Notes: generated by a model not told the origin, from the sequence alone. DNA of 64,000 nt from Candidatus Kaiserbacteria bacterium (GCA_016214605.1 JACROD010000023.1:32428-96427), one strand, 5' to 3'; counted from the first letter of the stretch, positions 15,876 through 51,253 are shown. Numbers and translations: made by a program.

Positions 15876-16006
15876 GACGATGATCCTTTCTGTGAATGAC
15901 CACGTAGCCTGACAAATTTGTACGCTTCTTTCTGGTATTGTCAATGACTTTCGTATGGGCGGGAAGGCATATAAAAAAGGCCGCACTTGCGCGCGGCCTT
16001 TCAATC

Positions 16007-21913: not shown

Positions 21914-21983
21914 GTGTTGAGTATAACAGACACAGCTTCGTCGAAGAGTCGGCGAAGCTCTGTGAATAGTACCGATTATGTGC

Positions 21984-22493: not shown

Positions 22494-22543
22494 AGAGAAA
22501 GTATAAACTAGAACTAATAAATAATGAAACGCGGACTGGATTA

Positions 22544-30935: not shown

Positions 30936-31829
30936 ATGAAAAATAAACTCACGTTCATCTTTGTGATCGCGATTATCATTGCTCTCTGGGCGGTTCTTTT
31001 CATACTCTCGCAGGGTGTTGATGTCTCCGTCTTGAATCCGAAAGGTTGGGTCGCGCTCCAGGAGAAAAATCTCATCATCACGGCAGTTCTCCTGATGTCT
31101 ATCGTGGTCGTGCCGGTGTACATCCTCACCTTCTTGATCGCTTGGAAATACCGCGCCAGCAACGCTTCCGCTGTATATGATCCCGACCATGACCATGATC
31201 TGCGCGTAGAGATCTTTTGGTGGGCCGTCCCGATCACGATCATTCTTATTCTCGGTACCATAACCTGGAAGACCACGCACGAGCTCGATCCTTTCAGACA
31301 TTTGGATTCCAATGCACGGCCGCTCACGGTCTATGTCGTCGCGCTCAATTGGAAATGGTTGTTCATTTATCCTGAGCAAGGGATCGCCACGGTGAATTTC
31401 GTCGAATTCCCCGAAAATAGGCCGATCGACTTTTGGATCACCGCCGATACGCCGATGAACTCCTTTTGGATACCGAGCTTGGGCAGCCAGATCTACGCGA
31501 TGGCTGGTATGACGACACAACTGCATCTGATCGCCGATCAAGTCGGCACATTCAACGGCCTTTCGGCGAATTTTAGCGGAGAGGGATTTTCGGGGATGAA
31601 ATTCGTCGCGCAATCAGTCTCGCAAAGCGATTTTGACCAATGGGTGCATTCGGTCCAGGAGCTTCCTACCATACTCGACGCGGACGAATACGTCCGATTG
31701 GCCGCACCTAGCTCAAACGTGCCCACGATGTATTTCGGTTCCGCCGATATGGGGCTGTATAATACAGTAGTCTTGAAATACATGACGCCCAACGTCTCGA
31801 TCCCCGCGATGGATCACGACGCGCATTAA
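30936..31829 (+). CDS. cyoA: Quinol oxidase subunit II (CyoA/QoxA-type; no CuA ligands)
   Basis: It has two N-terminal TM helices and a cupredoxin-like domain lacking the CuA Cys/His motif (..[18 protein letters not shown]..). It is immediately followed by subunits I, III and IV. Confidence 0.8.
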
Positions 31830-31837
31830 GATCAATT

Positions 31838-33814
31838 ATGTTCGGCAAACTCACACTCGATGCATTTCCGCAAAATCCGATCGTCATGTCGGCGTTAATC
31901 TTCATGATCGTGATCGGTGTCGCCATAGCGGGTGCCTTGTTCTATTTCAAGCGTTGGCGATGGTTCTGGGATGAATGGCTCACCTCGCTCGACGCCAAGC
32001 GTATCGGCGTGATGTATATCGCCGTCGGTTTCGTCATGCTGCTGCGCGGTGCCATAGACGCCGCGATGATGCGCGGGCAGCAGGCGATATCGGTCGGCGA
32101 TTCGTATGGTTATCTCACCCCCGACCACTTCGATCAGGTTTTCACCGCGCACGGCGTGATCATGATCTTCTTCGTCGCCATGCCGTTGATGTTTGGTCTC
32201 TTCAATCTCGTGGTGCCGCTTCAGATCGGCGCGCGCGATGTGGCATTTCCCTTCCTCAATTCAGTCAGCTTCTGGCTTTTTGCCGCCGGAGCGATACTCA
32301 TCAATATCTCGCTCGTCTACGGCGAATTCGCCAAGATCGGCTGGCTCGGCTACCCTCCGCTCTCTGAGCTCCAATACAGTCCCGGGGTCGGTGTCGATTA
32401 TTATATATGGCTGCTGCAGATCGCAGGCTTAGGCAGCCTCTTTGGCGCGATCAATTTTTTCGTGACGATCATCAAGATGCGCGCGCCAGGGATGACCTTG
32501 ATGCGCATGCCGATGTTTGAATGGACAACGCTCGCGAGTGTGGTGCTTATGATCGTTATATTCCCCATACTCACCGCGACCTTGGCGATGCTCTCCCTCG
32601 ATCGCTTGCTCGGGATGCATTTCTTTACTTCCGACTCCGGCGGCAACGCGATGATGTACGTCAATCTTATTTGGGCGTGGGGGCATCCGGAAGTATACGT
32701 GCTGATCTTGCCAGCCTTCGGCGCATTCTCGGAGATCGTACCGACCTTTGCGCGCAAGCCACTCTTTGGATATGCATCAATGGTCGCTGCATCAATCGTC
32801 ATTTGTTTTTTCTCGTTCATCGTATGGCTCCACCACTTCTTCACGATGGGTGCGGGAGCAAACGTAAACGCATTCTTTGGTATCGCGACGATGGTCATCG
32901 CCATCCCGACCGGTGTCAAAGTCTTCAACTGGCTCGCCACGATGTATCGCGGGCGCATCACTTTTACTTCGCCGATGTATTGGTTCCTCGGTTTTGTCGC
33001 AACCTTCACCCTCGGTGGCATGACCGGTGTGATGCTCGCAGTGCCGGGGATTGACTTCCAGGTCCACAACAGCCTCTTCTTGGTCGCGCACTTCCATAAT
33101 ATGGTGATCGGCGGTGTCGTGTTTGGTTATCTCGCGGCACTTTCTTTCTGGTTCCCCAAGATATTTGGTTTCCGGCTCAACGAAAAGTGGGGCATACGCG
33201 CCTTTTGGTGCTGGATCGTTGGATTCTTCGTGGCATTTATGCCGCTCTACGTACTCGGCTTCATGGGTGCGACGCGCCGCCTTGATCACTACGACGCTTC
33301 GACGGGTTGGCAGCCGCTTTTTATCGTGGCGGGCATCGGCGTCGCGATCATTGCGCTCGGTATCGTGTGTCAGGCGATACAGCTGATCGTGAGTATCAAG
33401 GAACGCAAACAAAATGCAGACACGACCGGCGATGCTTGGAATGATGGGCGCACGCTCGAATGGTCCACCTCCTCGCCGGCACCATTCTATAACTATGCCG
33501 TCATTCCGACCGTGCACGGACGCGATGCCTTTTGGGCGATGAAGCAGTCCGGCAACATTGGGCAAGCCAGGCTTGCCCAAGAGTACACAGACATTGAACT
33601 GCCGCGCAATACTCCTATGGGAGTGTATATCGGCGCATTCGCGCTCGTATTCGGATTCTCTCTCGTGTGGCACATCTGGTGGCTCGCCCTCATCGGAGCC
33701 CTGGGGATCGTCGCGTGCATTATCGCGCGCTCGTTTGATGAGCACACCGAATACATCCTCCCGGCCGCAGAGGTCGCTCGCATGGAAGCCGCTCGCGGCG
33801 CACAAACGATATGA
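31838..33814 (+). CDS. cyoB: Quinol oxidase subunit I (heme-copper oxidase catalytic subunit)
   Basis: 658 aa with ...[17 protein letters not shown]..., ...HHFFTMG... and [15 protein letters not shown], the classic HCO subunit I signatures. Confidence 0.9.
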
Positions 33815-34383
33815 CGCAGGACCTTTCTGAAAATAAGACAGTGTTCGGATTTTGGATCTATATCCTGAGCGATTGTTTTCTTTTTGCGACGCTTTTTGCC
33901 ACGTATGCGGTCTTGCACGGAAGCACATTTGGAGGGCCGGGAGCGGATACGCTCTTTAGTTTGCCGTTTGTCCTTGCCGAGACTCTCATCCTGCTCACCA
34001 GCAGCTTCACCGCAGGCCTCGCCATGCTTGCCGGGCATCAGGGCAAGCGCATACATGTGCTCGTATGGATTGGTATTACACTTCTCCTTGGACTCACCTT
34101 CGTTGGATTGGAGCTCAGGGAATTTGCCGCATTCATCGCTGAGGGCAATAGCTGGACCCGTAGCGGATTCTTGTCGGGATTCTTCACATTAGTGGGCACG
34201 CATGGCGCACACGTGGCCGCCGGATCGCTCTGGATGATCGTACTCATGGTCCAGATCACAAAGAAAGGCCTCACGGACACTCTGATGAACCGACTCATGC
34301 GCTGGAACCTTTTCTGGCATTTCCTGGATGTTGTGTGGATCTTTATCTTTACGTTCGTCTACCTTTTGGGCATAGCCCTCTAA
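33811..34383 (+). CDS. cyoC: Quinol oxidase subunit III
   Basis: 190 aa with five TM helices. Its position and length match CyoC. Confidence 0.8.
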
Positions 34384-34387
34384 CACT

Positions 34388-34786
34388 ATGGAAGACTCTA
34401 CGCATCACATGATCGATCATTCCCACTCATCTCGGCACGGTTCGCTCGTCTCATACATCATCGGCTTTGTGATCTCGATCGTCCTCACGCTTGCTGCATA
34501 TTTCATCGTGCAGCAGCATGTCTCTTCGCTCCACGAGACCTTCAGTCATTCATTTATCACCTTTGCCGTGGTCGGCTTCGCACTGCTGCAGCTTCTGGTC
34601 CAGCTCATTTTCTTTTTGCACCTGGGCCGCGACGCCAAACCCCATTGGAATCTTATCGTCTTTGTGTACGCATTTCTCCTGCTCCTTATCATCGTCGTAG
34701 GCTCTCTCTGGGTCATGCATCACCTCAACTACAACATGATGCTCATGCCGCCAGCGGAGGTCGATGCCTACATGCTTGATAAATAG
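34388..34786 (+). CDS. cyoD: Quinol oxidase subunit IV
   Basis: 132 aa with three TM helices immediately after subunit III. Confidence 0.7.
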   Translation: MEDSTHHMIDHSHSSRHGSLVSYIIGFVISIVLTLAAYFIVQQHVSSLHETFSHSFITFAVVGFALLQLLVQLIFFLHLGRDAKPHWNLIVFVYAFLLLLIIVVGSLWVMHHLNYNMMLMPPAEVDAYMLDK

Positions 34787-34817
34787 CTCACGGTGAGCAA
34801 GCCAGGCTTGCTCAAAT

Positions 34818-34850
34818 GGCAGGGAACGATGCCCTGCCATTTTTCATTTT
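34818..34850 (+). terminator. Rho-independent terminator after cyoD (ggcagggaacgatgccctgcc + atttttcatttttg)
   Basis: Hairpin followed by a T-run. The 19-bp palindrome at 34795-34813 precedes it. Confidence 0.6.
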
Positions 34851-34855
34851 TGTAA

Positions 34856-34878
34856 AAATATGTAACGTATGGTATGAT
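34856..34878 (+). promoter_or_regulatory. Sigma-70-like promoter TTGTAA-N17-TATGAT, 8 nt upstream of the hicB ATG (near-leaderless)
   Basis: The hexamers and spacing were read directly. No RBS lies between the -10 and the ATG at 34887. Confidence 0.4.
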
Positions 34879-34886
34879 GATTTATC

Positions 34887-35129
34887 ATGAAAAGGAAATC
34901 AAAAACAGTTACGACCTATACGGCAGTTGTTGAGAAGGACGAAAAGTCGGGCTATTGGGCGTATGTGCCCGCACTCCCTGGATGCTATACGCAGGGAGAG
35001 ACGCTTGATGCGATATACAAAAATCTGCAAGAAGCGACCGTGTTGTATCTAGCGGCACTGAAAGACGATAAAAAACCAGTGCCGCACTCGCATTTTTTGA
35101 GCACAGTGCAAGTGCAAGTTCCTGTTTGA
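34887..35129 (+). CDS. hicB: HicB-family antitoxin (UPF0150)
   Basis: YTAVVEKDEKSGYWAYVPALPGCYTQGETLDAIYKNLQEATVLYL is the HicB RNase-H-like fold signature. Confidence 0.65.
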   Translation: MKRKSKTVTTYTAVVEKDEKSGYWAYVPALPGCYTQGETLDAIYKNLQEATVLYLAALKDDKKPVPHSHFLSTVQVQVPV

Positions 35130-35138
35130 GATTTCGAT

Positions 35139-35354
35139 ATGGCGAAAATTCCTCGCGGCAGAGAGATGGTGCGAAAACTGTTGCGAATCGGTTTCGTATT
35201 GAATCGTCAGCATGGAAGCCATTGCGTAATGAAAAATGCAACGGGAGAGACTATTGTAGTGCCCGTGCATGCCGGCAGAGAATTAAAGATTGGCCTCTTT
35301 CGAAGTATTTTCTCGCAAATCGGCGTGTCCGAAGAAGAATTCTGGGAGATATGA
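35139..35354 (+). CDS. hicA: HicA-family toxin (mRNA interferase)
   Basis: MVRKLLRIGFVLNRQHGSHCVMKNATGETIVVPVHAGRELKIGLFRSIFSQIG is the HicA dsRBD-like motif, including the catalytic-region GSH. Confidence 0.65.
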   Translation: MAKIPRGREMVRKLLRIGFVLNRQHGSHCVMKNATGETIVVPVHAGRELKIGLFRSIFSQIGVSEEEFWEI

Positions 35355-36211
35355 TCAAGCGATACATCTCGCTCACCAAGCCCGGGATCATCATGGGCAA
35401 TGCGATCACGGCCTCGGGAGGATTTTTCCTCGCTTCGCGAGGGGCTTTTGATCCGGTGCTTTATCTCGCGATGCTCGCCGGGCTCTCACTCATCATCGCC
35501 TCTGGCTGTGTGATCAACAATTACTTCGATCGCGACATCGACGGCCTCATGGAACGCACCAAAAACCGCGCGCTCGTAAGTGGTGCAATGGTGCCCATTG
35601 CACCATGGAAGGCCATTTTTTTTGCGGCAGCACTCGGGGTCTTGGGGGTATGGATACTCTATCGATATACGAATCTCCTCACACTCGAGGTCGCGCTCTT
35701 TGGCGCTTTCGTATATATCGTGCTCTATACGCTCTGGTCTAAGCGCCGATCGACCAAAAGCACCTTCATAGGAAGCCTTTCGGGCGCGGTGCCACCGGTC
35801 ATCGGCTACTGTGCCGTGACCAATACGATCGATGCTGCGGCGATCCTCCTCTTTCTCATCCTTGTGCTCTGGCAAATGCCGCATTTCTTCGCGATCGCGC
35901 TGTATCGCATCGAGGATTACACGGCCGCCGCGATCCCGGTCTTGCCGGTCAAGAAAGGGATCTTGGCAACCAAGATCCAGATGATCCTCTATATCAACGC
36001 TTTTATCGTCGCGACACTCGCGTTGACCGCACTGGACTACACGGGATATTTCTACGCGCTTGTCATGGCGGTACTCGGAATCGTGTGGCTCGTCCTCGCG
36101 ATCATGGGATTCAAGGCGCCGGACACCAAAAAATGGGCACGGAGGATGTTTATCCTCTCACTGGTGGTCATTGTGACGTTTCCTGTCATGCTCGCAATTG
36201 ACGTACGGTAA
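35351..36211 (+). CDS. cyoE: Protoheme IX farnesyltransferase (heme O synthase)
   Basis: The ATG at 35351 overlaps the hicA stop (ATGA). The translation MIKRYISLTKPGIIMGNAITASGGFFLA...NNYFDRDIDGLMERTKNRAL... is the UbiA-family CyoE/CtaB. ORF-track frame 35126..36211 is an upstream over-extension. Confidence 0.85.
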   Translation: MIKRYISLTKPGIIMGNAITASGGFFLASRGAFDPVLYLAMLAGLSLIIASGCVINNYFDRDIDGLMERTKNRALVSGAMVPIAPWKAIFFAAALGVLGVWILYRYTNLLTLEVALFGAFVYIVLYTLWSKRRSTKSTFIGSLSGAVPPVIGYCAVTNTIDAAAILLFLILVLWQMPHFFAIALYRIEDYTAAAIPVLPVKKGILATKIQMILYINAFIVATLALTALDYTGYFYALVMAVLGIVWLVLAIMGFKAPDTKKWARRMFILSLVVIVTFPVMLAIDVR

Positions 36212-36212
36212 A

Positions 36213-39028
36213 TACTACAACAGTAGAAATTCCCTATAACGATTTGGCAACCGCTGTTGGAACGCCTTTATTACATCTACAACAGTAGAAATTCCCTATA
36301 ACGATTTGGCACGTCGGGCTTTTGGCATACGTTTAATCTACAACAGTAGAAATTCCCTATAACGATTTGGCGTACTTCGGGCACAGCCAACACCGGATCT
36401 ACAACAGTAGAAATTCCCTATAACGATTTGGCTTTTGTGACCTGATCGCTAGTAACTCATCTACAACAGTAGAAATTCCCTATAACGATTTGGCCCTACT
36501 CGCTCAACATCACACACGGCATCTACAACAGTAGAAATTCCCTATAACGATTTGGCGCAAAGCAATGGCATTGTGGACATTATCTACAACAGTAGAAATT
36601 CCCTATAACGATTTGGCCTGACATCAGGTTGGGTTTGGGGTTACATCTACAACAGTAGAAATTCCCTATAACGATTTGGCCGAATACATGGGTGGGGTGA
36701 ATCGAGAATCTACAACAGTAGAAATTCCCTATAACGATTTGGCGAATCCGACGTATACGATCGGCGTATTATCTACAACAGTAGAAATTCCCTATAACGA
36801 TTTGGCAAAACAATTTTGCCATGCAGAATAGATCTACAACAGTAGAAATTCCCTATAACGATTTGGCGGTGGAGGCAATGATTAGCGGGTTCTATCTACA
36901 ACAGTAGAAATTCCCTATAACGATTTGGCGTCATGCACAACCCACATCTCTTTGATCTACAACAGTAGAAATTCCCTATAACGATTTGGCGAATTATCAG
37001 TACGATGAGGTAGCAATCTACAACAGTAGAAATTCCCTATAACGATTTGGCGCGCTCGCCTTCGATAACAATTATATCTACAACAGTAGAAATTCCCTAT
37101 AACGATTTGGCCGTGAAACACCCCGAGCGTCGTGTATATCTACAACAGTAGAAATTCCCTATAACGATTTGGCGATAACGGGCGTATACTTGGAGTACCA
37201 TCTACAACAGTAGAAATTCCCTATAACGATTTGGCGAAAGAAGCCGCGAACAAAACAAAATATCTACAACAGTAGAAATTCCCTATAACGATTTGGCCCG
37301 CAGGGGTAATAAACACGTCTTTATCTACAACAGTAGAAATTCCCTATAACGATTTGGCGTCCGGAGCACCAGACCTTCTCTCCATCTACAACAGTAGAAA
37401 TTCCCTATAACGATTTGGCAGTGCCCGGAGCGGAGGTTTATGAGATCTACAACAGTAGAAATTCCCTATAACGATTTGGCACGTGTGCACGTTGCTACTA
37501 CTATCAAATCTACAACAGTAGAAATTCCCTATAACGATTTGGCATGGTGGCGGGGGTAAACTCGTTATAATCTACAACAGTAGAAATTCCCTATAACGAT
37601 TTGGCGGTTCTCGAAGTCGTTGAACCATATATCTACAACAGTAGAAATTCCCTATAACGATTTGGCGCCAACGACGCAACGAAAGCCGCCTAATCTACAA
37701 CAGTAGAAATTCCCTATAACGATTTGGCGTGATTTCAACATCACCCAGGAGGACATCTACAACAGTAGAAATTCCCTATAACGATTTGGCAAAAGCCGAA
37801 GAAACGGCGTTTCAAACATCTACAACAGTAGAAATTCCCTATAACGATTTGGCGAATCCAGCGAAGGAGTAATAAAAAAATCTACAACAGTAGAAATTCC
37901 CTATAACGATTTGGCGTGAGCGTGGTATGTGTGAGGGCCAAATCTACAACAGTAGAAATTCCCTATAACGATTTGGCAGTGAACGTGCGCACCTCCCAGT
38001 CCTATCTACAACAGTAGAAATTCCCTATAACGATTTGGCCCCGAATTGGTAGCAAAATATAATATATCTACAACAGTAGAAATTCCCTATAACGATTTGG
38101 CCAATCAATCTTGATCCGCAGATTATTTATCTACAACAGTAGAAATTCCCTATAACGATTTGGCATCACAGCTTAATATGCAACCTACAATCTACAACAG
38201 TAGAAATTCCCTATAACGATTTGGCAGGTGTACGCACGCGAGGAGGCACAAGATCTACAACAGTAGAAATTCCCTATAACGATTTGGCACGGGTCGTGAG
38301 GGACGAGGATACCTATCTACAACAGTAGAAATTCCCTATAACGATTTGGCACCGATATTCTATAACGATTAGTGAAATCTACAACAGTAGAAATTCCCTA
38401 TAACGATTTGGCCAACGAAAGCGCGACGAAGCAGCGCGATCTACAACAGTAGAAATTCCCTATAACGATTTGGCACCCCGAAATCGTCGCGCAATATCAG
38501 ATCTACAACAGTAGAAATTCCCTATAACGATTTGGCTCGATCTCGATATTGAGATGGTAGCATCTACAACAGTAGAAATTCCCTATAACGATTTGGCTTT
38601 TTGTGAATGCTGATTATTTTCAATCTACAACAGTAGAAATTCCCTATAACGATTTGGCTATTGCATTCTCATCAAGTGCCTCCAATCTACAACAGTAGAA
38701 ATTCCCTATAACGATTTGGCTTAAAGGCTCTGATATTCAGGGCATATCTACAACAGTAGAAATTCCCTATAACGATTTGGCAGGGTCAAGACCACGTATC
38801 TCTCTTTATCTACAACAGTAGAAATTCCCTATAACGATTTGGCTCGTGCTAAGAGGAAAAATAAAATATATCTACAACAGTAGAAATTCCCTATAACGAT
38901 TTGGCCGATCGTGTAGCGTGATCGGTTTTTGATCTACAACAGTAGAAATTCCCTATAACGATTTGGCCAGCGCTAAATAGACATCTATATGGATCTACAA
39001 CAGTAGAAATTCCCTATAACGATTTGGC
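36213..39028 (-). CRISPR. CRISPR array with 46 copies of a 36-nt repeat (minus-strand sense GCCAAATCGTTATAGGGAATTTCTACTGTTGTAGAT) and 45 spacers of ~25-27 nt. It is transcribed on the minus strand with the leader at the high-coordinate end
   Basis: Counted directly. Period is ~62 nt. The repeat's 3' 19 nt (AATTTCTACTGTTGTAGAT) forms the short UCUAC-UGUU-GUAGA hairpin typical of type V-A repeats. The leader-distal repeat at 36213 is degenerate (atactacaac) and starts 2 nt after the cyoE stop. Confidence 0.95.
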
Positions 39029-39223
39029 TGCGGGGATGGCTTGGTTGAGCCGCAGGATACAAATGAGGCACGAAGGCACTCACGACCTGGTTGGCTCAAC
39101 GAAGCCATTGTAAGGCCTCATCAAAAAATAAAGACTCCGGTTTTCACCGATCCCCGCAAGCGAAATCGAATCGTTACAATACAACTTCCACTCTTGTTGT
39201 TATGAAATTTTCAAAGGTCAGAG
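39029..39223 (-). promoter_or_regulatory. CRISPR leader (~195 bp) between cas2 and the first repeat, AT-rich with inverted repeats
   Basis: 16-nt inverted repeats atggcttggttgagcc (39036-39051) and ggctcaacgaagccat (39093-39108). A second pair atgaggc (39063-39069) and gcctcat (39115-39121) is interleaved with the first. An A/T-rich tract lies at 39120-39135. Confidence 0.5.
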
Positions 39224-39505
39224 TTAGTCGAAAACAACCACTTCTTTATCGTCGTTTTCTGCATAGCCGTACCGAACAATTTTCTTGCGGCACTGCTCGC
39301 AAAGAGGCACGATCATGACGCTATCCGCGCCCGTGAACTGCTTCTTATAATGCAATTCTATCTCCTTTTTAATGTTGCGCAAGATGCGATCACTATTACG
39401 TATCTCGTACACCGAGAATTGCAATTTGCGCCCAAACTTGCACAAAAACTTGGAAAATTTAGTCCGTACCTTATCGTTGGAGATGTCGTAAGATGTAACG
39501 AGCAT
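39224..39505 (-). CDS. cas2: CRISPR-associated endoribonuclease Cas2
   Basis: MLVTSYDISNDKVRTKFSKFLCKFGRKLQFSVYEI... is the Cas2 N-terminal beta-strand with Asp and the (R)LQxSV core. Its position next to cas1 and the array supports the call. Confidence 0.85.
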   Translation of the reverse strand: MLVTSYDISNDKVRTKFSKFLCKFGRKLQFSVYEIRNSDRILRNIKKEIELHYKKQFTGADSVMIVPLCEQCRKKIVRYGYAENDDKEVVVFD

Positions 39506-39510
39506 AATGT

Positions 39511-40467
39511 CTATATGTTAAATACGGGAAATTCCACTTCACCTTCGTTCATGACGTACCTATAATACCCATGTACGTATTTATACAAATCCTCCTTATG
39601 ACACATAATTGTTTCCATAAAGATCTCGGCATATTTACGACTCGCCTCGTATGAGAGTGTGTATCGTCCCTTCACCACTGTAAAATCCTTCGGGTCTATC
39701 TGCTTTAGATTCCACGCTTTGAGGAGTTGCTTGTCGATGATGCAGCGGAATGGCTCCATAATGTCACAGGCAAGCGACTTGCGCTGGAAGAAAAGCTTGT
39801 GATAAAAACCCTTATAGGTATCGAATCCATGTAGGCGGAGCAATGAATCGGTGCAATTGAATAGCATCGAATATCCGATGTCTAGCATAATATTGTGTAT
39901 GTCCCCCTTGGTGCGTGGGGCTCGTCGCACCCAACCTGTTTCGCCGTAATATTCTTCAAAAAACCTCCGCGAAGCATTACCCTCAAGTCCACGCAGAGTC
40001 TCATCACTACCCGCGCCCTGTATGGCGAGCAGTGTAGTATCCAGATCAGCTACCATACCATCTTTTTTCTTTCGTTCTTTGAGAAGTTTTGCTTGATTGG
40101 AAACTTTGTTTGCCATGAGCAATCGTGCCATGCTCATTTCCACATCCTCATTCCACGCATACTGGCGACTACGCAAGAGATAGTGCCCCTCTGCCACCGC
40201 ACCAAAGCTGGCATATGTCTCCAGATTGTCCTTGAGAAAGAAGAATGACACGCCGTGTTTGACCCCGTCACGCATGAGGCCGCTCGTGATGGTAATGTCC
40301 CCTATCACAAACGCGCCAAAGACCTTGTGACACGATGCCCTATTGATCACCTTGTCGTCCTTCATAAAGACCAAATTGTCATTAAAGAATTTGATCTTGT
40401 TGAAAACGCCACGCTCGGCCCGTATGAAGAGAAGTTGTTTTTCTTTGAAGTCAGGTAGTGAAATCAT
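39511..40467 (-). CDS. cas1: CRISPR-associated integrase Cas1
   Basis: 318 aa with ...GFDTYKGFYHKLFFQRKSLACDIMEPFRCIIDKQL... This corresponds to the Cas1 GxH...R.SL..DLMEPFRP.VD catalytic region. Confidence 0.9.
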   Translation of the reverse strand: MISLPDFKEKQLLFIRAERGVFNKIKFFNDNLVFMKDDKVINRASCHKVFGAFVIGDITITSGLMRDGVKHGVSFFFLKDNLETYASFGAVAEGHYLLRSRQYAWNEDVEMSMARLLMANKVSNQAKLLKERKKKDGMVADLDTTLLAIQGAGSDETLRGLEGNASRRFFEEYYGETGWVRRAPRTKGDIHNIMLDIGYSMLFNCTDSLLRLHGFDTYKGFYHKLFFQRKSLACDIMEPFRCIIDKQLLKAWNLKQIDPKDFTVVKGRYTLSYEASRKYAEIFMETIMCHKEDLYKYVHGYYRYVMNEGEVEFPVFNI

Positions 40468-40474
40468 ATGCGTA

Positions 40475-41014
40475 TTACCATGCTAGTGCTCCATAAATGC
40501 TTTCTTCGCAGCGTATACAGGAGTGTCCGTGGACGGCAGACATGTCGAAAGCGCGCATGTCTGCGAGCACTTGCTCAAAACGTGTTTTTTCAGCTTCGCC
40601 AGGGATGGGTATTTCATAGCGCTTGTTATCTTCGAGTGAGTGGAGAAATAGCTTGTCTATCTCGTATCCCATTTCGATCATGCAGTAGTATTGGGCGTAG
40701 AGCTGGTATCGGTAGCCGTCTCGGATCTCCTTGATGCGCGTTTTGCGTTCGATGAGGTGCTTTTTGTCGGCGTCGTATAGGTCAATCCGACCTGCCACCG
40801 CAAGCCTTTCGGAGTAGACTTCCATTCCCCCGATAAACCGACGTGCAGTGGAGTAGGTGTCGTCGTCGAGATGTGCATGGTTGGCCCGGCCGACGATCTG
40901 GGGCGTTTGATGGTAGGTCTTGGTGTTGAATCCTTCATAGAGATTATGGAGATAGATGGAGACCGGACAATACAAAAAGTCGTTGATATTGGAGATTTTG
41001 ATGTACGGTTCCAT
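40475..41014 (-). CDS. cas4: CRISPR-associated Cas4 (PD-(D/E)xK exonuclease with Fe-S cysteines)
   Basis: N-terminal FLYCPVSIYLHNLY, a core D...E.K (RIDLYDADKKHLIERKTR), and a C-terminal ...HGHSCIRCEESIY cysteine cluster. Confidence 0.8.
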   Translation of the reverse strand: MEPYIKISNINDFLYCPVSIYLHNLYEGFNTKTYHQTPQIVGRANHAHLDDDTYSTARRFIGGMEVYSERLAVAGRIDLYDADKKHLIERKTRIKEIRDGYRYQLYAQYYCMIEMGYEIDKLFLHSLEDNKRYEIPIPGEAEKTRFEQVLADMRAFDMSAVHGHSCIRCEESIYGALAW

Positions 41015-41203
41015 GGCTTGATAACAAAATAGCGACCCGCTAGGATCGCCACCTTGTTATCATGTGGTTGATCTTACGTCAAGTGTGTTGTATTTATGAT
41101 TAGGCCCTTTGTATCTCTTTTGTGGTTTCCTACTGTATGGACGATGCTGATTGTAAGCCACGATAAGCTATCCCAGTCTCTTGTAGAGACTCTAAAGGCC
41201 TAA
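41015..41203 (-). promoter_or_regulatory. Structured 189-bp spacer between the cas12a stop and the cas4 start. It has nested inverted repeats (a possible terminator or attenuator) plus a TTGACG box
   Basis: Outer arms gattaggccctttg (41097-41110) and ctaaaggcctaatc (41191-41204). Inner hairpin agtctcttgtagagact (41174-41190) lies 14 nt after the cas12a TGA. A second IR gataacaa...ttgttatc is at 41021-41062. Confidence 0.4.
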
Positions 41204-44200
41204 TCATAGTTGTATTCCGTGTTTAGTTGCCCATTCGTCCCACTGTTCTTTACTGATGTATAAATCCGGTTTTTCTGGATTATCATTTATACGGCCAATG
41301 GTGATAATACCCTTTCGAGCAATGTTGTAGGCGCCGAGAGAGTCGCCATTCGCCAGATTGATGTCACATGGATTTGGCTTTGGCGCATTGAGGGTTGTGA
41401 AGAATGGAGCAACGGGTGATGCAATGAAGTCGGTCTTATCAGACGAATTTCGGATATCGAGAATGATATTGAAGATATAGATGAATGCCTGGAAGAAGTT
41501 CCTTTCTCGCCCGTCAATCATCTTATAGCTGCTGAGTTCTCCATTTTTCATCTTTTCCTCGATCTTACTTTTTAGGTCGGTCGCTATTTTGTCCTCAAAA
41601 TTCCACGCCTCAAACAGAGACTTGAACATATCGTTCGGATTTACATTCCGAGCATTCCAAACACCTTGTTCGTTTCTCTCGCGACGAATACGTGGCACAT
41701 CTGCATATACCGTCCATAATTTCGATATCGTTTTAGTTTTCTCCTTCTTATCTACAAGTCTAACTGGATCGTAAGTGATAAAGTAGCTTTGCCTTTCTTC
41801 GTTCCAACCAATAGCATCGAAAGATTTAATTGCTTTTTCTAACTTCTCTTTGGTAGCTGAGTTACTGACATACACATTCTTACGGAATCCGGTGACAGGA
41901 TCTGTCGTCGACGTGTATGCTGCTTCAGTGTAGAAGACGATACCGGTCTGATTACCCATGTCTTTGAACGACTCAAACGGCGCGGCGAGTTGATAACCGT
42001 TTAGGACACCGCCTATTTCAAGCTCCGGCCTGTCTTTGAACACCATGTGACCGAGCTTGTCTACGAGTTGCTTTTCGAGCTGTTGGTATACACTCTTTTC
42101 AATACCACTACGAATTTGTTTGAAACGCATGTTGAGATTTTCGAGCACGATAATCGCGTTGTGTTCTATGGCGAGGTCGCAAATCTTTTTGACAGCATGC
42201 GATACATATCCACGCTTGAGGTCTTTGATCTGGCGCACCGGTAACCATGCTTGGCGATTGGCAGTACGTTCTTTCTCCTTGCCATCAAGAAGCTTGTGAT
42301 AGTCGGTGCCGCTAATCTCATTTAGACTCCCTTCGTCGACAATCACACCTTTTTGATTGATCACTGAATAGTATGCGAGATGCTTTTCCCCGCGATCAAT
42401 GCCGATGATGCAAAAGTCTTTTGCGCGCTTCGCGATAAGCTCGGCATTGAGTATCTTATTGAATTGATATTGGCTACGCATTGCATCCGTCCCCGCGTTG
42501 ATCTTGATTGGCACATGGAAGAATACCTTGTCTTCGGTAAAACGTTTGTATTTGGTGATGTCTCGCGGGAAGTTGCGTTTTTCTTTTTCCGGCTCCACCG
42601 ATGCCTCGCGGTAAAAAATCTCCGCATTTCCGGCGAGTTGTACCACAGTCGGTGTCTGTGCGAGATTTGCTTCGGAAAAGAGTTGTGAGAAGTAGAGTGA
42701 ATGCACATTTTTAGTACCCGTTGATCCGCTCGCAAAGTCTTTGCTTTTAATTTTGAACAAATACATCTCTCCTTTTGCAACATGCTCATCAATGTAGTCC
42801 GCATCTACTGGAACAAACTTTATCTTGTAATTTTGCTGTGCAATGTGGTCATTAAATTCACCGATACCCACATATTCCTCTGGTTTCTTCCATGTGAGTC
42901 CAAACGTCTCTTGGTAACCACCTTTGGCGAGACAGTTTTGATAGTACGCAATTAGTCTGGCAGTTTTATTCGCATCAAACTGATTTTTCCACGCACTCTG
43001 ATCTTCCTTTTTTGACTCTTGGAACTTGGCATACTCATCTTTAATCGCCTGCACTTCTGGTGTCCATCCAAACGTTTTTTTGTTGGTTTCCGCGAAAGCC
43101 ACCTTGGGAATCATGCGCTTTGGATCTGGAAACAGTTTGTATTCCATTTTTGAATATCCATTATCACCTGCTCGATACGCTTCGGGGTGTTTCTTCTCCT
43201 CCAGTATGTCACTAAACTGTTTACGCATTATCGCAAGATAATAAGCGCCGTCTTTTCGCAGAATAATGCCCAGCTTCTCTTGCTCTTTGTTTTTGTCCCA
43301 CCCGGAAAGAAGGGTGCCACATTCGAAGTTGAGTTTGACTTTGTTTTCATCGGATGGTTTTTGAGTGAGAAAATTGCGCGCTACATTGTAGAGCGGAAAG
43401 AAAATGTCTTTCGCATATTCTTCGCGATAGGCATCGTAGAATTTTGGGTCGTAACCCTCTTCTGGCTCAACCCAATCTCTCCTGTTTTCCGTCGCAAAGT
43501 ATTTGATCATACGATGCGCATCGCGACAGCTATTAAGGTACGCGCTGATACGATTGATCTGAATTGTCCCCTCATCTTCTTTTTCCTTACGCCTCTGCGA
43601 AAGTGCGCCCGTTGTCCAAAAGGAATCTTTTTTGAGGTCCGCCAAATCAACTGCACTTTCGGCAACACGCGCATCAAGTTCACTCAAGAGTATTGTAATG
43701 AGGTTTGTAAAGTGCCCGACACTCTCGACAAATGCTGCATGTTTCAATATCTCTGACCTGAACAACTCACTCGGTTTCTTCCCTTTATTTATTTCGTTCA
43801 CATCGAGAGCATTCTGTACGTGTTGAAGGGACACAAAATCAGGTAACTCCCCACCTCCACCCTTCGCCGTGCCAACCGCATCGAGAAGTGCGCCCTTGAG
43901 TACACTCCAGTTTGTGAAGTACTTACTCGAAATCGTATTGATCGCACCACTGGAGAAATATATTTTTGACCACTCATACCCACTTTTTTCTGGCATAGTA
44001 AGTGCGTCACGAATGAGCGCCAACATCTTCGTGCAGTAGGCGACATTTTCTTCAGAAAATACCTTTAGTTTCTCCCAGAGTTGGGCATCACCTTTTATCA
44101 CGAGCATCTCAAACACGTCTTTTTCACTCAAAATTTGATTGTGTAATTTTGCCAAAAAACTGATTTTGTTTCCAGTTTTCTGACGGTATTCGTTTACTTT

Positions 44201-45079
44201 TTTATTCACACTTTGCTCAAGCTCGGTACTGCCTCCAAGAACAGTATTGTAAACATCGATTCCGGCTTGCAAAAAACAACGATGATAGGCCTCAACATCG
44301 GTCAGCGCAAGAATCTCGGAATCAGTGAGTCCGATAGCGGTTTTTACTTTCTTATACTCGGATTCAACGATGTGTTTATTGCGCAAAAACTTTTCGAGAT
44401 TTTCGACTACACGTGTAGCCACCGCCGTGCTCGTACCGTCACTCTTGTAGAAATTCTCTCGCGTCTCGTTAAACTTTCCAAAATATGTGAAGAATCCAAA
44501 GAATGTCGAAAACACTTGTGTATCTTCAGCAAACTTATCCATTAGGATATTCAACACCGCTTCGTCAGTGAGAATTTTACAGCCTGTAGATGAGAACTTG
44601 ATTTTCTTTTGCTTGCCTGTGCGCCCAACGGATTCTATTTCTTCATATTGTGCCTTCCACTCATCGCCCATCTCATCAAAGAGACCTGCGACCTCGTACA
44701 AAAGAGCTTTTCTTTCTTTCTCATATGCGCTCTTCTGTTCTTTCGTTTGTGTCTTTTTGGCAACACCGATAAGGGCGTTATATGCACGTACAAAACTTGC
44801 AAGTTTTAACGCACTGACTTTTGATTCTGTAAAAGACGCTTGCACAAACAAACGATGTAATTGGTCCAATCGCACCTTGGTCTTTTGATAGTTTTCCTCG
44901 ACTTTTTTATCTTCTTCAAAAACAGCTTTTAAGGATTCGGAAGTTTTGCCTTGCGGCACCAACTCAAACCGCAATGTCTTCGACAATGCGTATTTGTGAG
45001 TAAAGCTGTCAAACACGGACTTTTGTCCTTCGGGATTCTTTCCACCGGACACAGGCGATCTCTGGGTCATGGTATTCAT
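41204..45079 (-). CDS. cas12a: Type V-A CRISPR effector Cas12a (Cpf1), 1291 aa. It is a single RuvC-like nuclease with no HNH domain
   Basis: The N-terminus FDSFTHKYALSKTLRFELVPQGKTSESLKA (the WED strand conserved in the Cas12a family). RuvC-I CIIGIDRGEKHLAYYSVI. RuvC-II AIIVLENLNMRFKQIRSGIEKSVYQQLEKQLVDKL. Then GIVFYTEAAYTSTTDPVTGF. RuvC-III INLANGDSLGAYNIARKG near the C-terminus. The family Lys-rich helical REC region is present. It lies immediately upstream of cas4-cas1-cas2 and the array. Confidence 0.9.
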   Translation of the reverse strand: MNTMTQRSPVSGGKNPEGQKSVFDSFTHKYALSKTLRFELVPQGKTSESLKAVFEEDKKVEENYQKTKVRLDQLHRLFVQASFTESKVSALKLASFVRAYNALIGVAKKTQTKEQKSAYEKERKALLYEVAGLFDEMGDEWKAQYEEIESVGRTGKQKKIKFSSTGCKILTDEAVLNILMDKFAEDTQVFSTFFGFFTYFGKFNETRENFYKSDGTSTAVATRVVENLEKFLRNKHIVESEYKKVKTAIGLTDSEILALTDVEAYHRCFLQAGIDVYNTVLGGSTELEQSVNKKVNEYRQKTGNKISFLAKLHNQILSEKDVFEMLVIKGDAQLWEKLKVFSEENVAYCTKMLALIRDALTMPEKSGYEWSKIYFSSGAINTISSKYFTNWSVLKGALLDAVGTAKGGGGELPDFVSLQHVQNALDVNEINKGKKPSELFRSEILKHAAFVESVGHFTNLITILLSELDARVAESAVDLADLKKDSFWTTGALSQRRKEKEDEGTIQINRISAYLNSCRDAHRMIKYFATENRRDWVEPEEGYDPKFYDAYREEYAKDIFFPLYNVARNFLTQKPSDENKVKLNFECGTLLSGWDKNKEQEKLGIILRKDGAYYLAIMRKQFSDILEEKKHPEAYRAGDNGYSKMEYKLFPDPKRMIPKVAFAETNKKTFGWTPEVQAIKDEYAKFQESKKEDQSAWKNQFDANKTARLIAYYQNCLAKGGYQETFGLTWKKPEEYVGIGEFNDHIAQQNYKIKFVPVDADYIDEHVAKGEMYLFKIKSKDFASGSTGTKNVHSLYFSQLFSEANLAQTPTVVQLAGNAEIFYREASVEPEKEKRNFPRDITKYKRFTEDKVFFHVPIKINAGTDAMRSQYQFNKILNAELIAKRAKDFCIIGIDRGEKHLAYYSVINQKGVIVDEGSLNEISGTDYHKLLDGKEKERTANRQAWLPVRQIKDLKRGYVSHAVKKICDLAIEHNAIIVLENLNMRFKQIRSGIEKSVYQQLEKQLVDKLGHMVFKDRPELEIGGVLNGYQLAAPFESFKDMGNQTGIVFYTEAAYTSTTDPVTGFRKNVYVSNSATKEKLEKAIKSFDAIGWNEERQSYFITYDPVRLVDKKEKTKTISKLWTVYADVPRIRRERNEQGVWNARNVNPNDMFKSLFEAWNFEDKIATDLKSKIEEKMKNGELSSYKMIDGRERNFFQAFIYIFNIILDIRNSSDKTDFIASPVAPFFTTLNAPKPNPCDINLANGDSLGAYNIARKGIITIGRINDNPEKPDLYISKEQWDEWATKHGIQL

Positions 45080-45357
45080 TTAAACTATTGGGCTTTGTAT
45101 AAAACCTCCGCCACTCCAAGCCACCGAGGGACGACGGTGATCGCCCGATAGAATGCGTGCCAAACGGCTATGCGAATACCGGAACCGTCGCCCCTCGATG
45201 ATTTCGAGAGGGGCATATATCTACAGGCGATCATGGTAACTATAGACTTTGATCATCAGCCATGCAAACATGCCGCCCTTACGGCAGTTATCAACATTGT
45301 ATGTGTACGGACTTGGTTTATACTTATGCAAAATCATTAATATAAAGATACACGCAT

Positions 45358-45900
45358 ATGCAAGAAACAAATCTGTACACCATTACCATCCCGCCGATGA
45401 AGAAGACGCTCCAGGCGTTTTCGCACATACTCGATAAGGCCGCCGCGCATTCGGAATCCAAGAAGCTCTCTTGGATGGATTTTGAATCCGCGCTTCTGGT
45501 CGACAAGATTATCTTTGATCAGTTCAACTTCACGAGACAGGTCCAAATAGCATCCGACAACGCCAAGGGCATTGCCGCGCGTTTGGCCGAGATCGAGATC
45601 CCGGTCTTTGAGGACAACGAGACCACGATCGTACAGCTCAAGGAGCGTTTGGAAAAAACCATCGCCTTCCTGGAGACCATCAAACCCGAACAGGTCATCG
45701 GCAAAGAAGCCGTGAAGGTCACGCTTTCGTATTTCCCCGGCAAGCATATGACAGGATTCGACTATGTGACCCAGTATGCGATGCCCAATTTTTACTTCCA
45801 TATCACGACCGCATACGACATCTTGCGCAAGAACGGCGTGAATATCGGCAAGGGCGATTATACAGGCACTTTGCCGTTTCGCGACGAGGAAAAGGCCTAA
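45358..45900 (+). CDS. DUF1993-like hypothetical protein
   Basis: MQETNLYTITIPPMKKTLQAFSHILDKAAAHSE... This N-terminal pattern resembles the DUF1993 family, recalled from memory. Confidence 0.35.
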   Translation: MQETNLYTITIPPMKKTLQAFSHILDKAAAHSESKKLSWMDFESALLVDKIIFDQFNFTRQVQIASDNAKGIAARLAEIEIPVFEDNETTIVQLKERLEKTIAFLETIKPEQVIGKEAVKVTLSYFPGKHMTGFDYVTQYAMPNFYFHITTAYDILRKNGVNIGKGDYTGTLPFRDEEKA

Positions 45901-50062: not shown

Positions 50063-51253
50063 TCAGATATCGGGGTCGTCTATATCGAGAACAAGCTGGA
50101 TCTCTGCCGACGGCGTCATGAGATTTCCGGTTTTATAACGCCGAGGTGCCGTGTGAGGGTGGCGGCACGTATCGAGGGGAAAAAGCTCTTGCGGCACTTC
50201 CATCCGACGGCGCGGATGGATCATGAACATGCCGACCTCGTAGTACGGGCCCGACGGGACATTCCTCACACATGCGTCACTGATCGGACATCTCGCACAT
50301 GATCGCGCATACCACCTTTGGTGGTTGAGATCGTCAGGATCAACATTGAGGACCTGCGGCAAAGTCTTTTTGCCGTCACGATAGTTCTTTCTGGTACTGC
50401 GTCCGACCGAACGATTTCCCGGTGCAAGTGCACAAAGATTCGACGACAAGAGCCATAAGGCATCGGCCAGTTCCACACTTCGCGAGAAATCCCTTTTGAG
50501 ATAGCACTCCAAGAGATTGGCCCCGTATTTGTACGCTTCGTCGTAGCCGATCCTGCGTTCGTAGGTATCCGGCACGAGAATCTCTGTCTCAAACATCACC
50601 CGCAGGAGATGAAAATCGACCGCAGGAATGATCTCGATAGGCGACACCAGCTTCTCGGCAATGAGAAAATACGCAAGCATGCTGGTCATTTTCGCCTGGA
50701 ACCCCTCAAACCCCTGTTCGTGATTGAGAAGTTCATTTGATGGCCTCGTCCCTTGAGTGCGTTTATTCATCACTCTCCTGCGGAGGTCGGCTCCATCCTT
50801 CAGCTTGTGGAAGATGAGCCGGGGATCTCCGCGCCAATACTTGATGAGTCGAGCGGAGTTTTCCTGCCAGAAAACTCCGATCTCATCAATGTGGTAATTG
50901 AGGGCGCGAACGAGCTGACCTTTGATCTCTTCGAGCGGTATCGTCACGACCTTTTCGGGCATGAAGAGATCCGGCCTAAAAGACCACAACGTGACCAATT
51001 GACGTATCGCGGTCGTACTATCCAGTGCCCCGCGCATAAAATGACAGGCATACCATAAGAATTGCGCGTGTCTCAGTGGATCCTTTCGTAGCTCTGCAGG
51101 AACCATATCCTGCGGAAGGACGGCGACATTGTACGGATACCTTACCTCGCGAAACGCCTCCAAGAGAATCCCGAAGACGCGCGAGGCACGTTTGTGATTC
51201 GTCTTTATTCCCATCGGAAGAGTGCTCCTTTTAATCTTTTCCGCGCGCAACAT
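50063..51253 (-). CDS. Hypothetical protein with a C-terminal Cys cluster (CARCPISDAC), possibly a DNA-glycosylase-like Fe-S protein
   Basis: 396 aa. The only recognisable feature is the C-x2-C-x5-C motif near aa 320. The functional guess is weak. Confidence 0.25.
   Translation of the reverse strand: MLRAEKIKRSTLPMGIKTNHKRASRVFGILLEAFREVRYPYNVAVLPQDMVPAELRKDPLRHAQFLWYACHFMRGALDSTTAIRQLVTLWSFRPDLFMPEKVVTIPLEEIKGQLVRALNYHIDEIGVFWQENSARLIKYWRGDPRLIFHKLKDGADLRRRVMNKRTQGTRPSNELLNHEQGFEGFQAKMTSMLAYFLIAEKLVSPIEIIPAVDFHLLRVMFETEILVPDTYERRIGYDEAYKYGANLLECYLKRDFSRSVELADALWLLSSNLCALAPGNRSVGRSTRKNYRDGKKTLPQVLNVDPDDLNHQRWYARSCARCPISDACVRNVPSGPYYEVGMFMIHPRRRMEVPQELFPLDTCRHPHTAPRRYKTGNLMTPSAEIQLVLDIDDPDI

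Follow-up and report, generated by a model that had tools for sequence, protein, structure and literature searches.

The DNA analysed (the window) was a 64-kb stretch assigned to an uncultivated Candidatus Kaiserbacteria (CPR/Patescibacteria); this assignment rests on the name of the metagenome-assembled genome. The features found between positions 36213 and 45079 are listed below. ORF calls and the repeat count reproduced the gene order and strand given in a first-pass annotation, and every coordinate and count claimed there was recovered.

36213-45079, minus strand: cas12a-cas4-cas1-cas2-leader-array type V-A locus, all elements co-directional
41204-45079, minus strand: cas12a (cpf1), 1291-aa ORF (TIGR04330, Pfam and PDB matches)
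42539-42610, minus strand: shortened WED loop of Cas12a, residues 824-847 (REASVEPEKEKRNFPRDITKYKRF), site of the pre-crRNA RNase in FnCas12a
41015-41203, minus strand: structured cas12a-cas4 gap, 189 nt (minimum free energy -60 kcal/mol)
40475-41014, minus strand: cas4, 179 aa, type V subtype (TIGR04328; GenBank MBI5004311.1)
39511-40467, minus strand: cas1, 318 aa, type V subtype (TIGR04329, Pfam Cas_Cas1; GenBank MBI5004310.1)
39224-39505, minus strand: cas2, 93 aa (Pfam CRISPR_Cas2, TIGR01573; GenBank MBI5004309.1)
39029-39223, minus strand: leader, 195 nt, flanked by the cas2 stop and repeat 1
39036-39108, minus strand: 73-nt leader hairpin (inverted repeat), arms ATGGCTTCGTTGAGCC and GGCTCAACCAAGCCAT
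36213-39028, minus strand: CRISPR array, 46 repeats and 45 spacers (exact-pattern count)
36213-36248, minus strand: degenerate terminal (leader-distal) repeat, two mismatches at its 3' end

Effector and adaptation proteins

The large ORF had been placed in the Cas12a family, with a split RuvC, REC features and no HNH, and a profile search against Cas12a/Cpf1 models had been proposed. This search was run and bore out the placement: the NCBI Cas12a equivalog model TIGR04330 (cas_Cpf1) was passed with 752.9 bits (cutoff 300). The Pfam search found the REC1, REC2, PI, RuvC_1 and NUC domains (PF18501, PF21918, PF22222, PF18516, PF18510) and no HNH family in the ORF. Solved Cas12a structures matched over nearly the full length with E-values down to 1e-165, and the FnCas12a structure (PDB) matched with an E-value of about 1e-147. 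The protein was 100% identical to P0001. It shares 56-82% identity within a small clade of seven, formed with the metagenomic Cas12a proteins P0002-P0007 (loci L001, L002, L004, L005 and L006), and at most 40% with all homologues outside. The GenBank entry (MBI5004312.1) starts three codons downstream of the ORF start and thus comprises 1288 aa. GenBank already holds all four Cas proteins (MBI5004309-MBI5004312), with type V names given by the annotation pipeline.

The RuvC triad (D895/E980/D1246) and the Nuc arginine (R1210) were present. D895 and E980 occupy the columns of Fn D917 and E1006, which are invariant in 121 homologues. D1246 aligns with the RuvC-III Asp of Fn (D1255; motif DANGAY) and R1210, in a conserved RNS motif, with that of Fn MRNS (R1218); both are invariant in the clade. 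The lysine motifs of the WED and PI domains (GWDKNKE and RMIPKV), which we take from family knowledge to be PAM-reading, were present and conserved.

Cas4 matched TIGR04328 (cas4_PREFRAN) with 186 bits (cutoff 70), Cas1 matched TIGR04329 (cas1_PREFRAN) with 324.5 bits (cutoff 300) and Cas2 matched TIGR01573 with 45.9 bits (cutoff 24.5). Canonical catalytic motifs had been claimed for all three proteins. They were found in Cas1 (E162, H223, D235 and E238, invariant in five relatives) and in Cas2, whose N-terminus MLVTSYD bears D7. For Cas4, the claim held for the nuclease motifs (D...ExK and QxxxY; D78, E89, K91 and Q104-Y106/Q108, invariant in six relatives) and for C16, but not for the C-terminal cysteine triad. 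The Cas4 cysteines are non-canonical (C16, C111, C166 and C169): the Fe-S triad CxxCx5C is replaced by HGHxC166xxC169, where C169 is kept, Ser and Ala occupy the remaining positions of the triad, and C166 is an extra cysteine inside HGHxCxxC. The four-cysteine Fe-S set typical of Cas4, a RecB-like nuclease (N-terminal Cys plus C-terminal CxxCx5C), is incomplete in the window Cas4; the canonical triad was found in relatives L001 and L005, and a reduced cysteine set in L004. Cas4 C16 and D78 and Cas2 D7 correspond to residues of proven importance in F. novicida: full-site integration there requires D7 of Cas2, and D78 is the position that was mutated in FnoCas4 (PMC13034035).

Another type V subtype, for instance V-B or V-E with a tracrRNA, could have been misread as V-A, as the RuvC region weakly matches the Cas12e model. 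This match is sub-threshold (53.7 bits, cutoff 200), whereas the Cas12a equivalog score lies far above its cutoff, the Cas12a-specific REC, PI and Nuc domains were found, Cas4 and Cas1 match V-A specific models, the repeat carries a V-A handle and the 64 kb contain no detected anti-repeat (see below). A V-B or V-E system with tracrRNA was refuted by the model scores (752.9 against 300 for TIGR04330, 53.7 against 200 for Cas12e), and a subtype misreading of any kind is considered extremely improbable.

Non-coding elements and genomic setting

Counting of the exact pattern gave 46 copies of a 36-nt repeat (minus-strand sequence GCCAAATCGTTATAGGGAATTTCTACTGTTGTAGAT) in 36213-39028, the number previously reported. 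Of these, 45 are identical; the start of the deviating leader-distal copy and the stop codon of a convergent UbiA-family gene are 1 nt apart. The spacers are 24-27 nt long, all 45 are unique and no 12-mer is shared. None of the 45 had a match elsewhere in the 64-kb window at up to five mismatches, or a protospacer in the cultured-phage and plasmid collections; no protospacer was found in IMG/VR for the eight spacers queried. The last 19 nt of the repeat, AATTTCTACTGTTGTAGAT, had been described as identical to the Cas12a crRNA handle, and they equal the repeat handle of F. novicida. The F. novicida repeat used for this comparison is consistent with the motif positions in PMC13034035. A 5-bp stem (UCUAC/GUAGA) was predicted at the repeat 3' end, which fits the V-A handle pattern UCUACU-N3-5-GUAGAU. 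The lack of an anti-repeat, initially noted for flanks of about 1 kb, extended to the entire 64 kb: outside the array, neither the repeat nor its complement was found at up to eight mismatches, and the best local match was 10 nt long (E = 1.3). The V-A class is supported by the family models, the structure homologues, the RuvC and Nuc residues, the handle with its stem and the absent anti-repeat.

The 195 bp claimed as leader were indeed left between the cas2 ORF and the array. The leader is strongly conserved with that of L002 and has blocks common to L001 and L004. Within it, a T-run block (39121-39132) lies 4 nt downstream of a small hairpin (39137-39150). The 73-nt hairpin has z-scores of -6.2 (minus strand) and -6.5 (plus strand), and 7 nt separate its end from repeat 1. 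The architecture of this hairpin recurs with different sequences in L001, L002, L004 and L005. RNAalifold on four sequences gave 20 pairs, eight with compensatory changes; in its structure, the hairpin is conserved among five relatives. Promoter matches in the consensus scan were at chance level, and none could be assigned. In F. novicida, the Cas1-Cas2 target site has TCTA palindromes at the two ends of the repeat, and the leader-proximal one is essential (PMC13034035). The 3' end of the window repeat (...GTAGAT) includes TAGA, the complement of TCTA; at the 5' end (GCCAAA), TCTA is absent. Because of this absence and of the conserved hairpin 7 nt upstream, the means by which the integrase locates the leader-side site is less certain.

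The cas12a-cas4 gap was correctly labelled 'structured', since its 189 nt fold at -60 kcal/mol with z = -6.0 (200 shuffles). One part of the fold is a closed domain of 104 nt (41100-41203); another is a 20-bp hairpin with a U-tract after it (41019-41062), which stops 4 nt short of the cas4 ATG. This hairpin has four G-U pairs on the sense transcript and includes a terminator-like match; the Rfam search of the gap gave a sub-threshold match only. The spacing of the two genes among relatives ranges from overlap up to 189 nt: the gap is structured, yet not conserved. With less certainty, hairpin and U-tract may partly terminate transcription or provide a site for processing, which would uncouple the expression of cas12a from that of cas4-cas1-cas2.

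The cas genes have a GC content of 44.3%, against about 52% for the flanks. Two relatives, whose loci lie among different neighbouring genes, show this contrast too. The flanking genes of the window locus are housekeeping genes.

With a probability of about 0.93, this is a chromosomal, horizontally acquired CRISPR-Cas adaptive immune locus of type V-A (Cas12a) in Candidatus Kaiserbacteria, complete and seemingly intact. It could instead be a decaying or domesticated remnant, nuclease-dead or adaptation-dead and with a non-immune role, like the RuvC-mutated Cas12a of some Roizmanbacteria: CRISPR-Cas is rarely kept in CPR genomes, some CPR Cas12a carry RuvC substitutions (PMC6509639), the spacer targets were not found in the collections searched (45 spacers in phages and plasmids, eight in IMG/VR) and part of the Cas4 cysteine set is lost. 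However, the catalytic residues of RuvC, Nuc, Cas1 and Cas2 and the nuclease residues of Cas4 are all intact, the four ORFs are full length, the repeats are identical but for one, the spacers are all unique and the leader is conserved, and a remnant is judged very unlikely.

For an intact immune locus, family knowledge predicts the following course. Transcription of the array would start from the leader, and each crRNA would carry a repeat-derived 5' handle (AAUUUCUACUGUUGUAGAU) and a spacer-derived guide. Cas12a would bind one crRNA and read a 5' T-rich PAM, and its single RuvC site would cut both DNA strands. In Cas12a systems, such a cut is expected to be staggered and PAM-distal, with collateral ssDNase activity as a further trait. 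Cas4 would trim pre-spacers beside the PAM, and Cas1-Cas2 would insert them at the leader-repeat junction. Cas12a has been known in CPR bacteria since 2015 (PMC6509639), and GenBank already carries an annotation of this very locus. The locus is of a known kind, a typical representative of a familiar family.

The WED loop and pre-crRNA processing

The RNase site of FnCas12a comprises H843 as general acid, K852, and K869 as proposed base (PMC11127173). The corresponding WED segment has 24 residues in the window Cas12a versus 41 in Fn (R833-F873), and is thus about 17 residues shorter. Within the limits of an uncertain loop alignment, none of these 24 residues is a histidine alignable to Fn H843, K843 and F847 pair with Fn K869 and F873, and R835 falls close to K852. 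All seven members of the clade carry K, R or H at position 843. In a set of 121 homologues, close and distant, an Fn-like loop occurs in only 11; 43 show a His at position 870, and in 52 the segment is free of His. The missing-His condition is common to most environmental homologues, and all matching solved Cas12a structures have the long loop. Many relatives also carry the EKRNF(P)R motif, and this recurrence points to a functional pocket that is conserved.

The effector had been described as tracrRNA-independent and self-processing. The first part agrees with the lack of an anti-repeat in 64 kb; the second is not readable, the H843 equivalent being absent. Because the loop lacks this histidine, we infer self-processing and do not read it from motifs, and maturation of pre-crRNA by the window Cas12a itself is less certain. 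The enzyme might not mature its own pre-crRNA, or might use a different catalytic set, which would make it a functional variant and not a textbook V-A effector; processing upstream of the handle would then fall to a host RNase or to the Lys/Arg/Tyr residues of the 'EKRNFPR...TKYKRF' loop. The loss of the general acid in a shortened segment, the rarity of Fn-like loops among homologues, the frequent lack of His and the long loop of the matched structures argue for such a variant. Against it stand the kept K843, F847 and R835, the recurring EKRNF(P)R motif and a crRNA handle identical to that of Fn. To our knowledge, every Cas12a tested so far processes its own crRNA. Moreover, Fn processing-site mutants still make processed crRNA in vivo, at a reduced level (PMC11797020). 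A variant of this kind is possible but rather unlikely.

A wider proposal is put forward as speculation that is more probably wrong than right by a good measure: in the clade, and perhaps in most environmental short-loop Cas12a, the pre-crRNA RNase site would be remodelled or absent and would lack the general-acid His; the conserved hairpin of the leader would mark the integration site instead of the 5' TCTA palindrome, and Cas4 would have altered Fe-S ligands. If true, these V-A systems would mature their crRNAs and recognise their leaders by mechanisms other than those of the Francisella, Acidaminococcus and Lachnospiraceae paradigm.

Comparison with known systems

The clade loci share with the window the gene order, the short His-poor WED loop, the position of the leader hairpin, cas genes lower in GC than their flanks and related repeats with the handle (A/G/T)ATTTCTACT(G/T)TTGTAGAT. 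They differ in cas12a-cas4 spacing, genomic neighbourhood, spacers, which are unrelated, and Cas4 cysteine pattern.

Cas12a systems of other CPR bacteria were reportedly described by Zetsche in 2015 and Chen in 2019. The named CPR homologues among the Cas12a matches belong to Kaiserbacteria, Dojkabacteria and Patescibacteria. Other CPR Cas12a (Parcubacteria, Dojkabacteria, Roizmanbacteria) have the same host super-group and subtype; the window differs from these systems by its long 46-repeat array and by an identity of at most 40% outside the clade. The RuvC is reportedly substituted in the 'group 1' Cas12a of Roizmanbacteria (PMC6509639), whereas the RuvC residues of the window Cas12a are intact.

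The V-A system of F. novicida U112 is alike in gene order, 36-nt repeat, 19-nt 3' handle, absence of a tracrRNA, RuvC D/E/D, Nuc Arg and the K869 and F873 equivalents, and Cas4 C16 and D78 and Cas2 D7 are at the same positions. In contrast, the window has a WED RNase loop 17 residues shorter and without the H843 equivalent, an altered Cas4 C-terminal cysteine triad, spacers of 24-27 nt versus a preferred pre-spacer of 27-29 bp in Fn (PMC13034035), and, unlike F. novicida, the 189-nt structured cas12a-cas4 gap and the 73-nt leader hairpin. Its repeat begins with GCCA and not with GTCTA, so that the leader-side TCTA palindrome, essential for integration in F. novicida, is missing.

Identity and genomic setting of the locus

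The locus was assigned to type V-A, as the first-pass annotation had proposed; the one caveat concerns self-processing of the pre-crRNA. Gene order, the 189-nt cas12a-cas4 gap and the 195-nt leader were recalculated from the ORF coordinates and came out exactly as described there.

Features of the type V-A locus (minus strand; window positions)
41204-45079, minus strand: cas12a, 1291-aa ORF
42539-42610, within cas12a: shortened WED loop (Cas12a residues 824-847), counterpart of R833-F873 in Francisella novicida (Fn)
41015-41203, minus strand: cas12a-cas4 intergenic gap, 189 nt
40475-41014, minus strand: cas4, 179 aa
39511-40467, minus strand: cas1, 318 aa
39224-39505, minus strand: cas2, 93 aa
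39029-39223, minus strand: leader, 195 nt
36213-39028, minus strand: CRISPR array, 46 copies of a 36-nt unit (pattern count)
36213-36248: degenerate terminal repeat, the copy most distant from the cas genes, with two mismatches at its 3' end

The 1291-aa ORF had been read as a Cas12a with three RuvC motifs and no HNH insertion. It scored 752.9 bits against the NCBI Cas12a/Cpf1 equivalog model, far above the cutoff of 300. The REC1, REC2, PI, RuvC and Nuc domains of Cas12a were found in Pfam searches and HNH was absent. Alignment to the structure of FnCas12a (from strain U112) spanned nearly the whole protein (E about 1e-147), and AsCas12a, LbCas12a, Lb2Cas12a and an entry deposited as 'ReChb' were the further solved structures matched. 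RuvC-I D895 (GIDRGE) and RuvC-II E980 (VLENLN) lie in columns invariant in 121 homologues. RuvC-III D1246 (NGDSLGAYNIARKG) was aligned to the aspartate of Fn DANGAY and R1210 (IRNS) to the Fn Nuc arginine motif, and neither residue varies within a seven-member clade of related Cas12a proteins, outside which identity is at most 40%.

The protein shows 100% identity to GenBank MBI5004312.1, 'type V CRISPR-associated protein Cas12a/Cpf1 [Candidatus Kaiserbacteria bacterium]', which starts three codons downstream and is recorded on a 120,006-bp contig. Two in-frame ATGs stand three codons apart at 45071-45079 (MNTM...), giving 1291 aa with the ORF finder and 1288 aa in GenBank; no clear Shine-Dalgarno sequence was seen at a suitable distance before either. 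Cas4 (MBI5004311.1), Cas1 (MBI5004310.1) and Cas2 (MBI5004309.1) are also named type V there. Type V-A systems are textbook, Cas12a from the candidate phyla radiation (CPR) has been on record since 2015 and GenBank already names this very locus, so its discovery value is small. CRISPR-Cas is rare in CPR bacteria, and Cas12a has been recognised in Parcubacteria, Dojkabacteria and Roizmanbacteria since Zetsche 2015 (PMC6509639); with the GenBank names, this means that the first pass correctly read a locus that had been annotated before and belongs to a known family. Because of its low identity outside the clade, this apparently intact, uncharacterised Cas12a with the crRNA handle of FnCas12a may be considered as a candidate ortholog for editing or diagnostic use.

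The flanks consist of housekeeping genes (AlaRS, RpoA, MnmA, YceG, ThyA, SHMT and ABC transporters) plus a cyo-type quinol oxidase operon, and the locus is therefore placed on the chromosome. GC content is 44.3% in the cas genes and about 52% on either side, a contrast also found in two related metagenomic loci, L001 (43.7% against 54-55%) and L002 (45% against 51%). A low-GC cassette lying in unrelated gene neighbourhoods in these three cases points to horizontal acquisition, as judged from base composition and gene context. The low-GC island (36213-45357) showed no integrase, transposase or flanking direct repeat. Scans of genome contigs for relatives gave only L002, and a metagenome alignment query, run with unspecific peptide patterns, gave one partial locus, L003.

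Several neighbouring ORFs were recorded. The cyo-type operon (30936-36211, plus strand) is complete, with heme-copper oxidase subunit II (COX_ARM), subunit I (658 aa, 'cytochrome o ubiquinol oxidase subunit I' in GenBank), subunits III and IV and a UbiA-family heme O synthase. A single nucleotide separates the stop of the operon's final gene from the terminal CRISPR repeat. The genome carrying this operon is labelled Candidatus Kaiserbacteria, a group generally regarded as devoid of respiratory chains. About 13 kb from the array (21140-23434, minus strand), a 330-aa PD-(D/E)XK protein adjoins a 296-aa protein with ATP-cone and Mrr_cat domains, a pair that may have a further defence or repair function. 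A 346-aa ORF (28608-29648, minus strand) carries an N-terminal Sigma70 region 4 with HARE-HTH, a combination that is unusual among sigma-like proteins. Four minus-strand ORFs of 392-523 aa (9631-11202, 11303-12481, 27070-28473 and 50063-51253) had no Pfam match at E <= 1e-5. A 154-aa minus-strand ORF (45337-45801) was not accepted as a gene, since no family matched it and a strong DUF1993 gene overlaps it on the plus strand.

The array, its handle and its spacers

The array of 46 repeats of 36 nt was reproduced at 36213-39028, and Tandem Repeats Finder and a repeat finder recovered the same array. In the minus-strand sense the repeat is GCCAAATCGTTATAGGGAATTTCTACTGTTGTAGAT, identical in 45 of the 46 copies; the two mismatches in the outermost copy are expected of a degenerate terminal repeat. 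A 5-bp stem (UCUAC/GUAGA) was predicted at the repeat 3' end, where the crRNA handle is AAUUUCUACUGUUGUAGAU. The final 19 nt, claimed at first pass to equal the handle of characterised orthologs, match the F. novicida handle; the Fn repeat used for this comparison is consistent with where PMC13034035 places the repeat motifs.

Anti-repeats, reported absent from about 1 kb on either side, were absent from the full 64 kb, as were stray repeats outside the array (none at <=8 mismatches; best local match 10 nt, E = 1.3). No Rfam family exceeded threshold over 35.5-46.5 kb, the sole match being a chance-level snoRNA within cas12a. The promoter scan found 19 candidates against 19.0 expected; at this chance level none was assigned to the array or the cas genes.

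The 45 spacers are 24-27 nt long (26 nt, n = 22; 25 nt, n = 15; 27 nt, n = 7; 24 nt, n = 1), all distinct, and no two have a 12-mer in common. None matched elsewhere in the window at <=5 mismatches, so no self-target was seen there. All 45, joined by N spacers, gave no blastn match in 50,697 phage records and 72,556 plasmids, and exact 22-mers of spacers 1-6, 8 and 9 gave none in IMG/VR. Since no protospacer was obtained, a PAM could not be derived, and PAM, targets and current activity are read from family knowledge. The motifs GWDKNKE and RMIPKV, which are conserved, lend indirect support to this reading. Such a long array in a relatively rare CPR carrier could assist in linking CPR hosts with their phages once viral sequences that match become available.

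The pre-crRNA RNase site of Cas12a

Cleavage of pre-crRNA by FnCas12a involves H843 (acid), K852 and K869 (base) (PMC11127173), and Fn processing-site mutants still process somewhat in vivo (PMC11797020). The WED loop was compared in 121 sequences (the window protein and 120 homologues) to which an Fn reference segment, checked against PDB chain 8y0b_A (residues 825-1042), was added. The window counterpart of Fn R833-F873 is REASVEPEKEKRNFPRDITKYKRF, 24 residues against 41 in Fn, and contains no histidine. K843 was aligned to Fn K869 and F847 to F873, and R835 fell near K852. In independent HMMER alignments to 'ReChb' and AsCas12a, the His-bearing stretch likewise fell in a query gap. The long loop is present in every solved Cas12a structure matched.

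The Fn-type H843 loop is missing from most of the environmental homologues retrieved, not from the window protein alone: 11 of the 121 sequences have an Fn-like long loop, 43 have a histidine at position 870 (that of Fn D870, motif xNHKRY), 5 at 869 and 10 elsewhere in the segment, and 52 have none. Among His-less sequences the motif EKRNF(P)R recurs, which suggests a conserved alternative pocket, and the alignment suggests at least three RNase-site configurations within the family. Self-processing by the window Cas12a, expected at first pass, is plausible, given the conserved handle, the lack of a tracrRNA, the retention of K843 and the partial activity of Fn mutants in vivo; against it stands the absence of an H843-type histidine.

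Adaptation genes, intergenic gap and leader

Cas4 and Cas1 passed type V-specific models (cas4_PREFRAN 186, cutoff 70; cas1_PREFRAN 324.5, cutoff 300), and Cas2 scored above the cutoff of its generic model. Canonical catalytic motifs had been claimed for all three. This was borne out for Cas2, for Cas1 (E162, H223, D235 and E238, invariant in five relatives) and for the nuclease residues of Cas4, but not for the Cas4 C-terminal cysteine triad: at residues 162-169, CxxCx5C is replaced by HGHxC166xxC169 in the window, L002 and L006. Unlike these, the relatives L001 and L005 have the triad, and L004 keeps one of the four canonical cysteines. Solubility of F. novicida Cas4 (FnoCas4) depends on its 4-Cys Fe-S cluster (PMC13034035). 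Cas4 proteins sharing 90% identity or more with that of the window occur on 10 other contigs (ENA, JGI, Logan assemblies), whereas Cas12a relatives reach just 56-82%. Compared with the effector, the adaptation module appears to be better conserved or to have been sampled more widely.

The cas12a-cas4 gap is structured, as had been noted (z = -6.0 for folding stability against shuffled sequences). At its end stand a 20-bp hairpin (four G-U pairs in the sense transcript) and, after it, a U-tract, with 4 nt left to the cas4 ATG; the gap matches no known RNA family in Rfam. The spacing is 188 nt in L002 (z = -3.8), 72 in L006, 27 in L004 and 21 in L005, and the genes overlap in L001. What sequence similarity there is between the window and L002 gaps lies mainly in a short stretch at the centre and around the 3' hairpin; L002 and L006 carry a different GC hairpin with T-tract at the same spot before cas4. 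A conserved module was therefore rejected, since length varies and only the GC hairpin with T-tract recurs (window, L002, L006). The gap does not define the V-A system; it is best read as lineage-specific, a putative terminator, attenuator or processing site that separates the effector from the adaptation genes.

The leader is strongly conserved in L002, and blocks of it occur in L001 and L004 too. In each of the five loci having a leader, a three-tier hairpin of like architecture but differing sequence is predicted at the corresponding place, ending 7-14 nt upstream of the first repeat.

Leader hairpins
39036-39108, window: 73 nt, 7 nt upstream of repeat 1; z = -6.2 (opposite strand, z = -6.5)
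About 15681-15764: L001
About 15978-16050: L002
About 7421-7501: L004
About 5953-6035: L005

RNAalifold of four of the five leaders gave 20 pairs, and compensatory changes were seen in 8 of them. Given the small number of sequences, this hints at a structure conserved across the clade but does not prove it. The hairpin may act as DNA, marking the integration site, or as RNA, stabilising a 5' end. It matched no known RNA family in Rfam, and no V-A leader element of this kind is described in PMC13034035. That the clade combines a His-free or absent RNase site with a leader recognition other than that of Francisella seems unlikely. The His-less WED loop, the altered Cas4 cysteines, the missing 5' TCTA and the leader hairpin are pointers to diversity in V-A crRNA maturation and adaptation.

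Integration in F. novicida needs TCTA palindromes at both repeat ends, the leader-side one being essential, and Cas2 D7 and Cas4 C16 and D78 were shown to be important (PMC13034035). Compared with that system, the window repeat reads GCCAAA at its 5' end, without TCTA, and has the palindrome at its 3' end (...GTAGAT); Cas2 D7 and Cas4 C16 and D78 stand at identical residue numbers.
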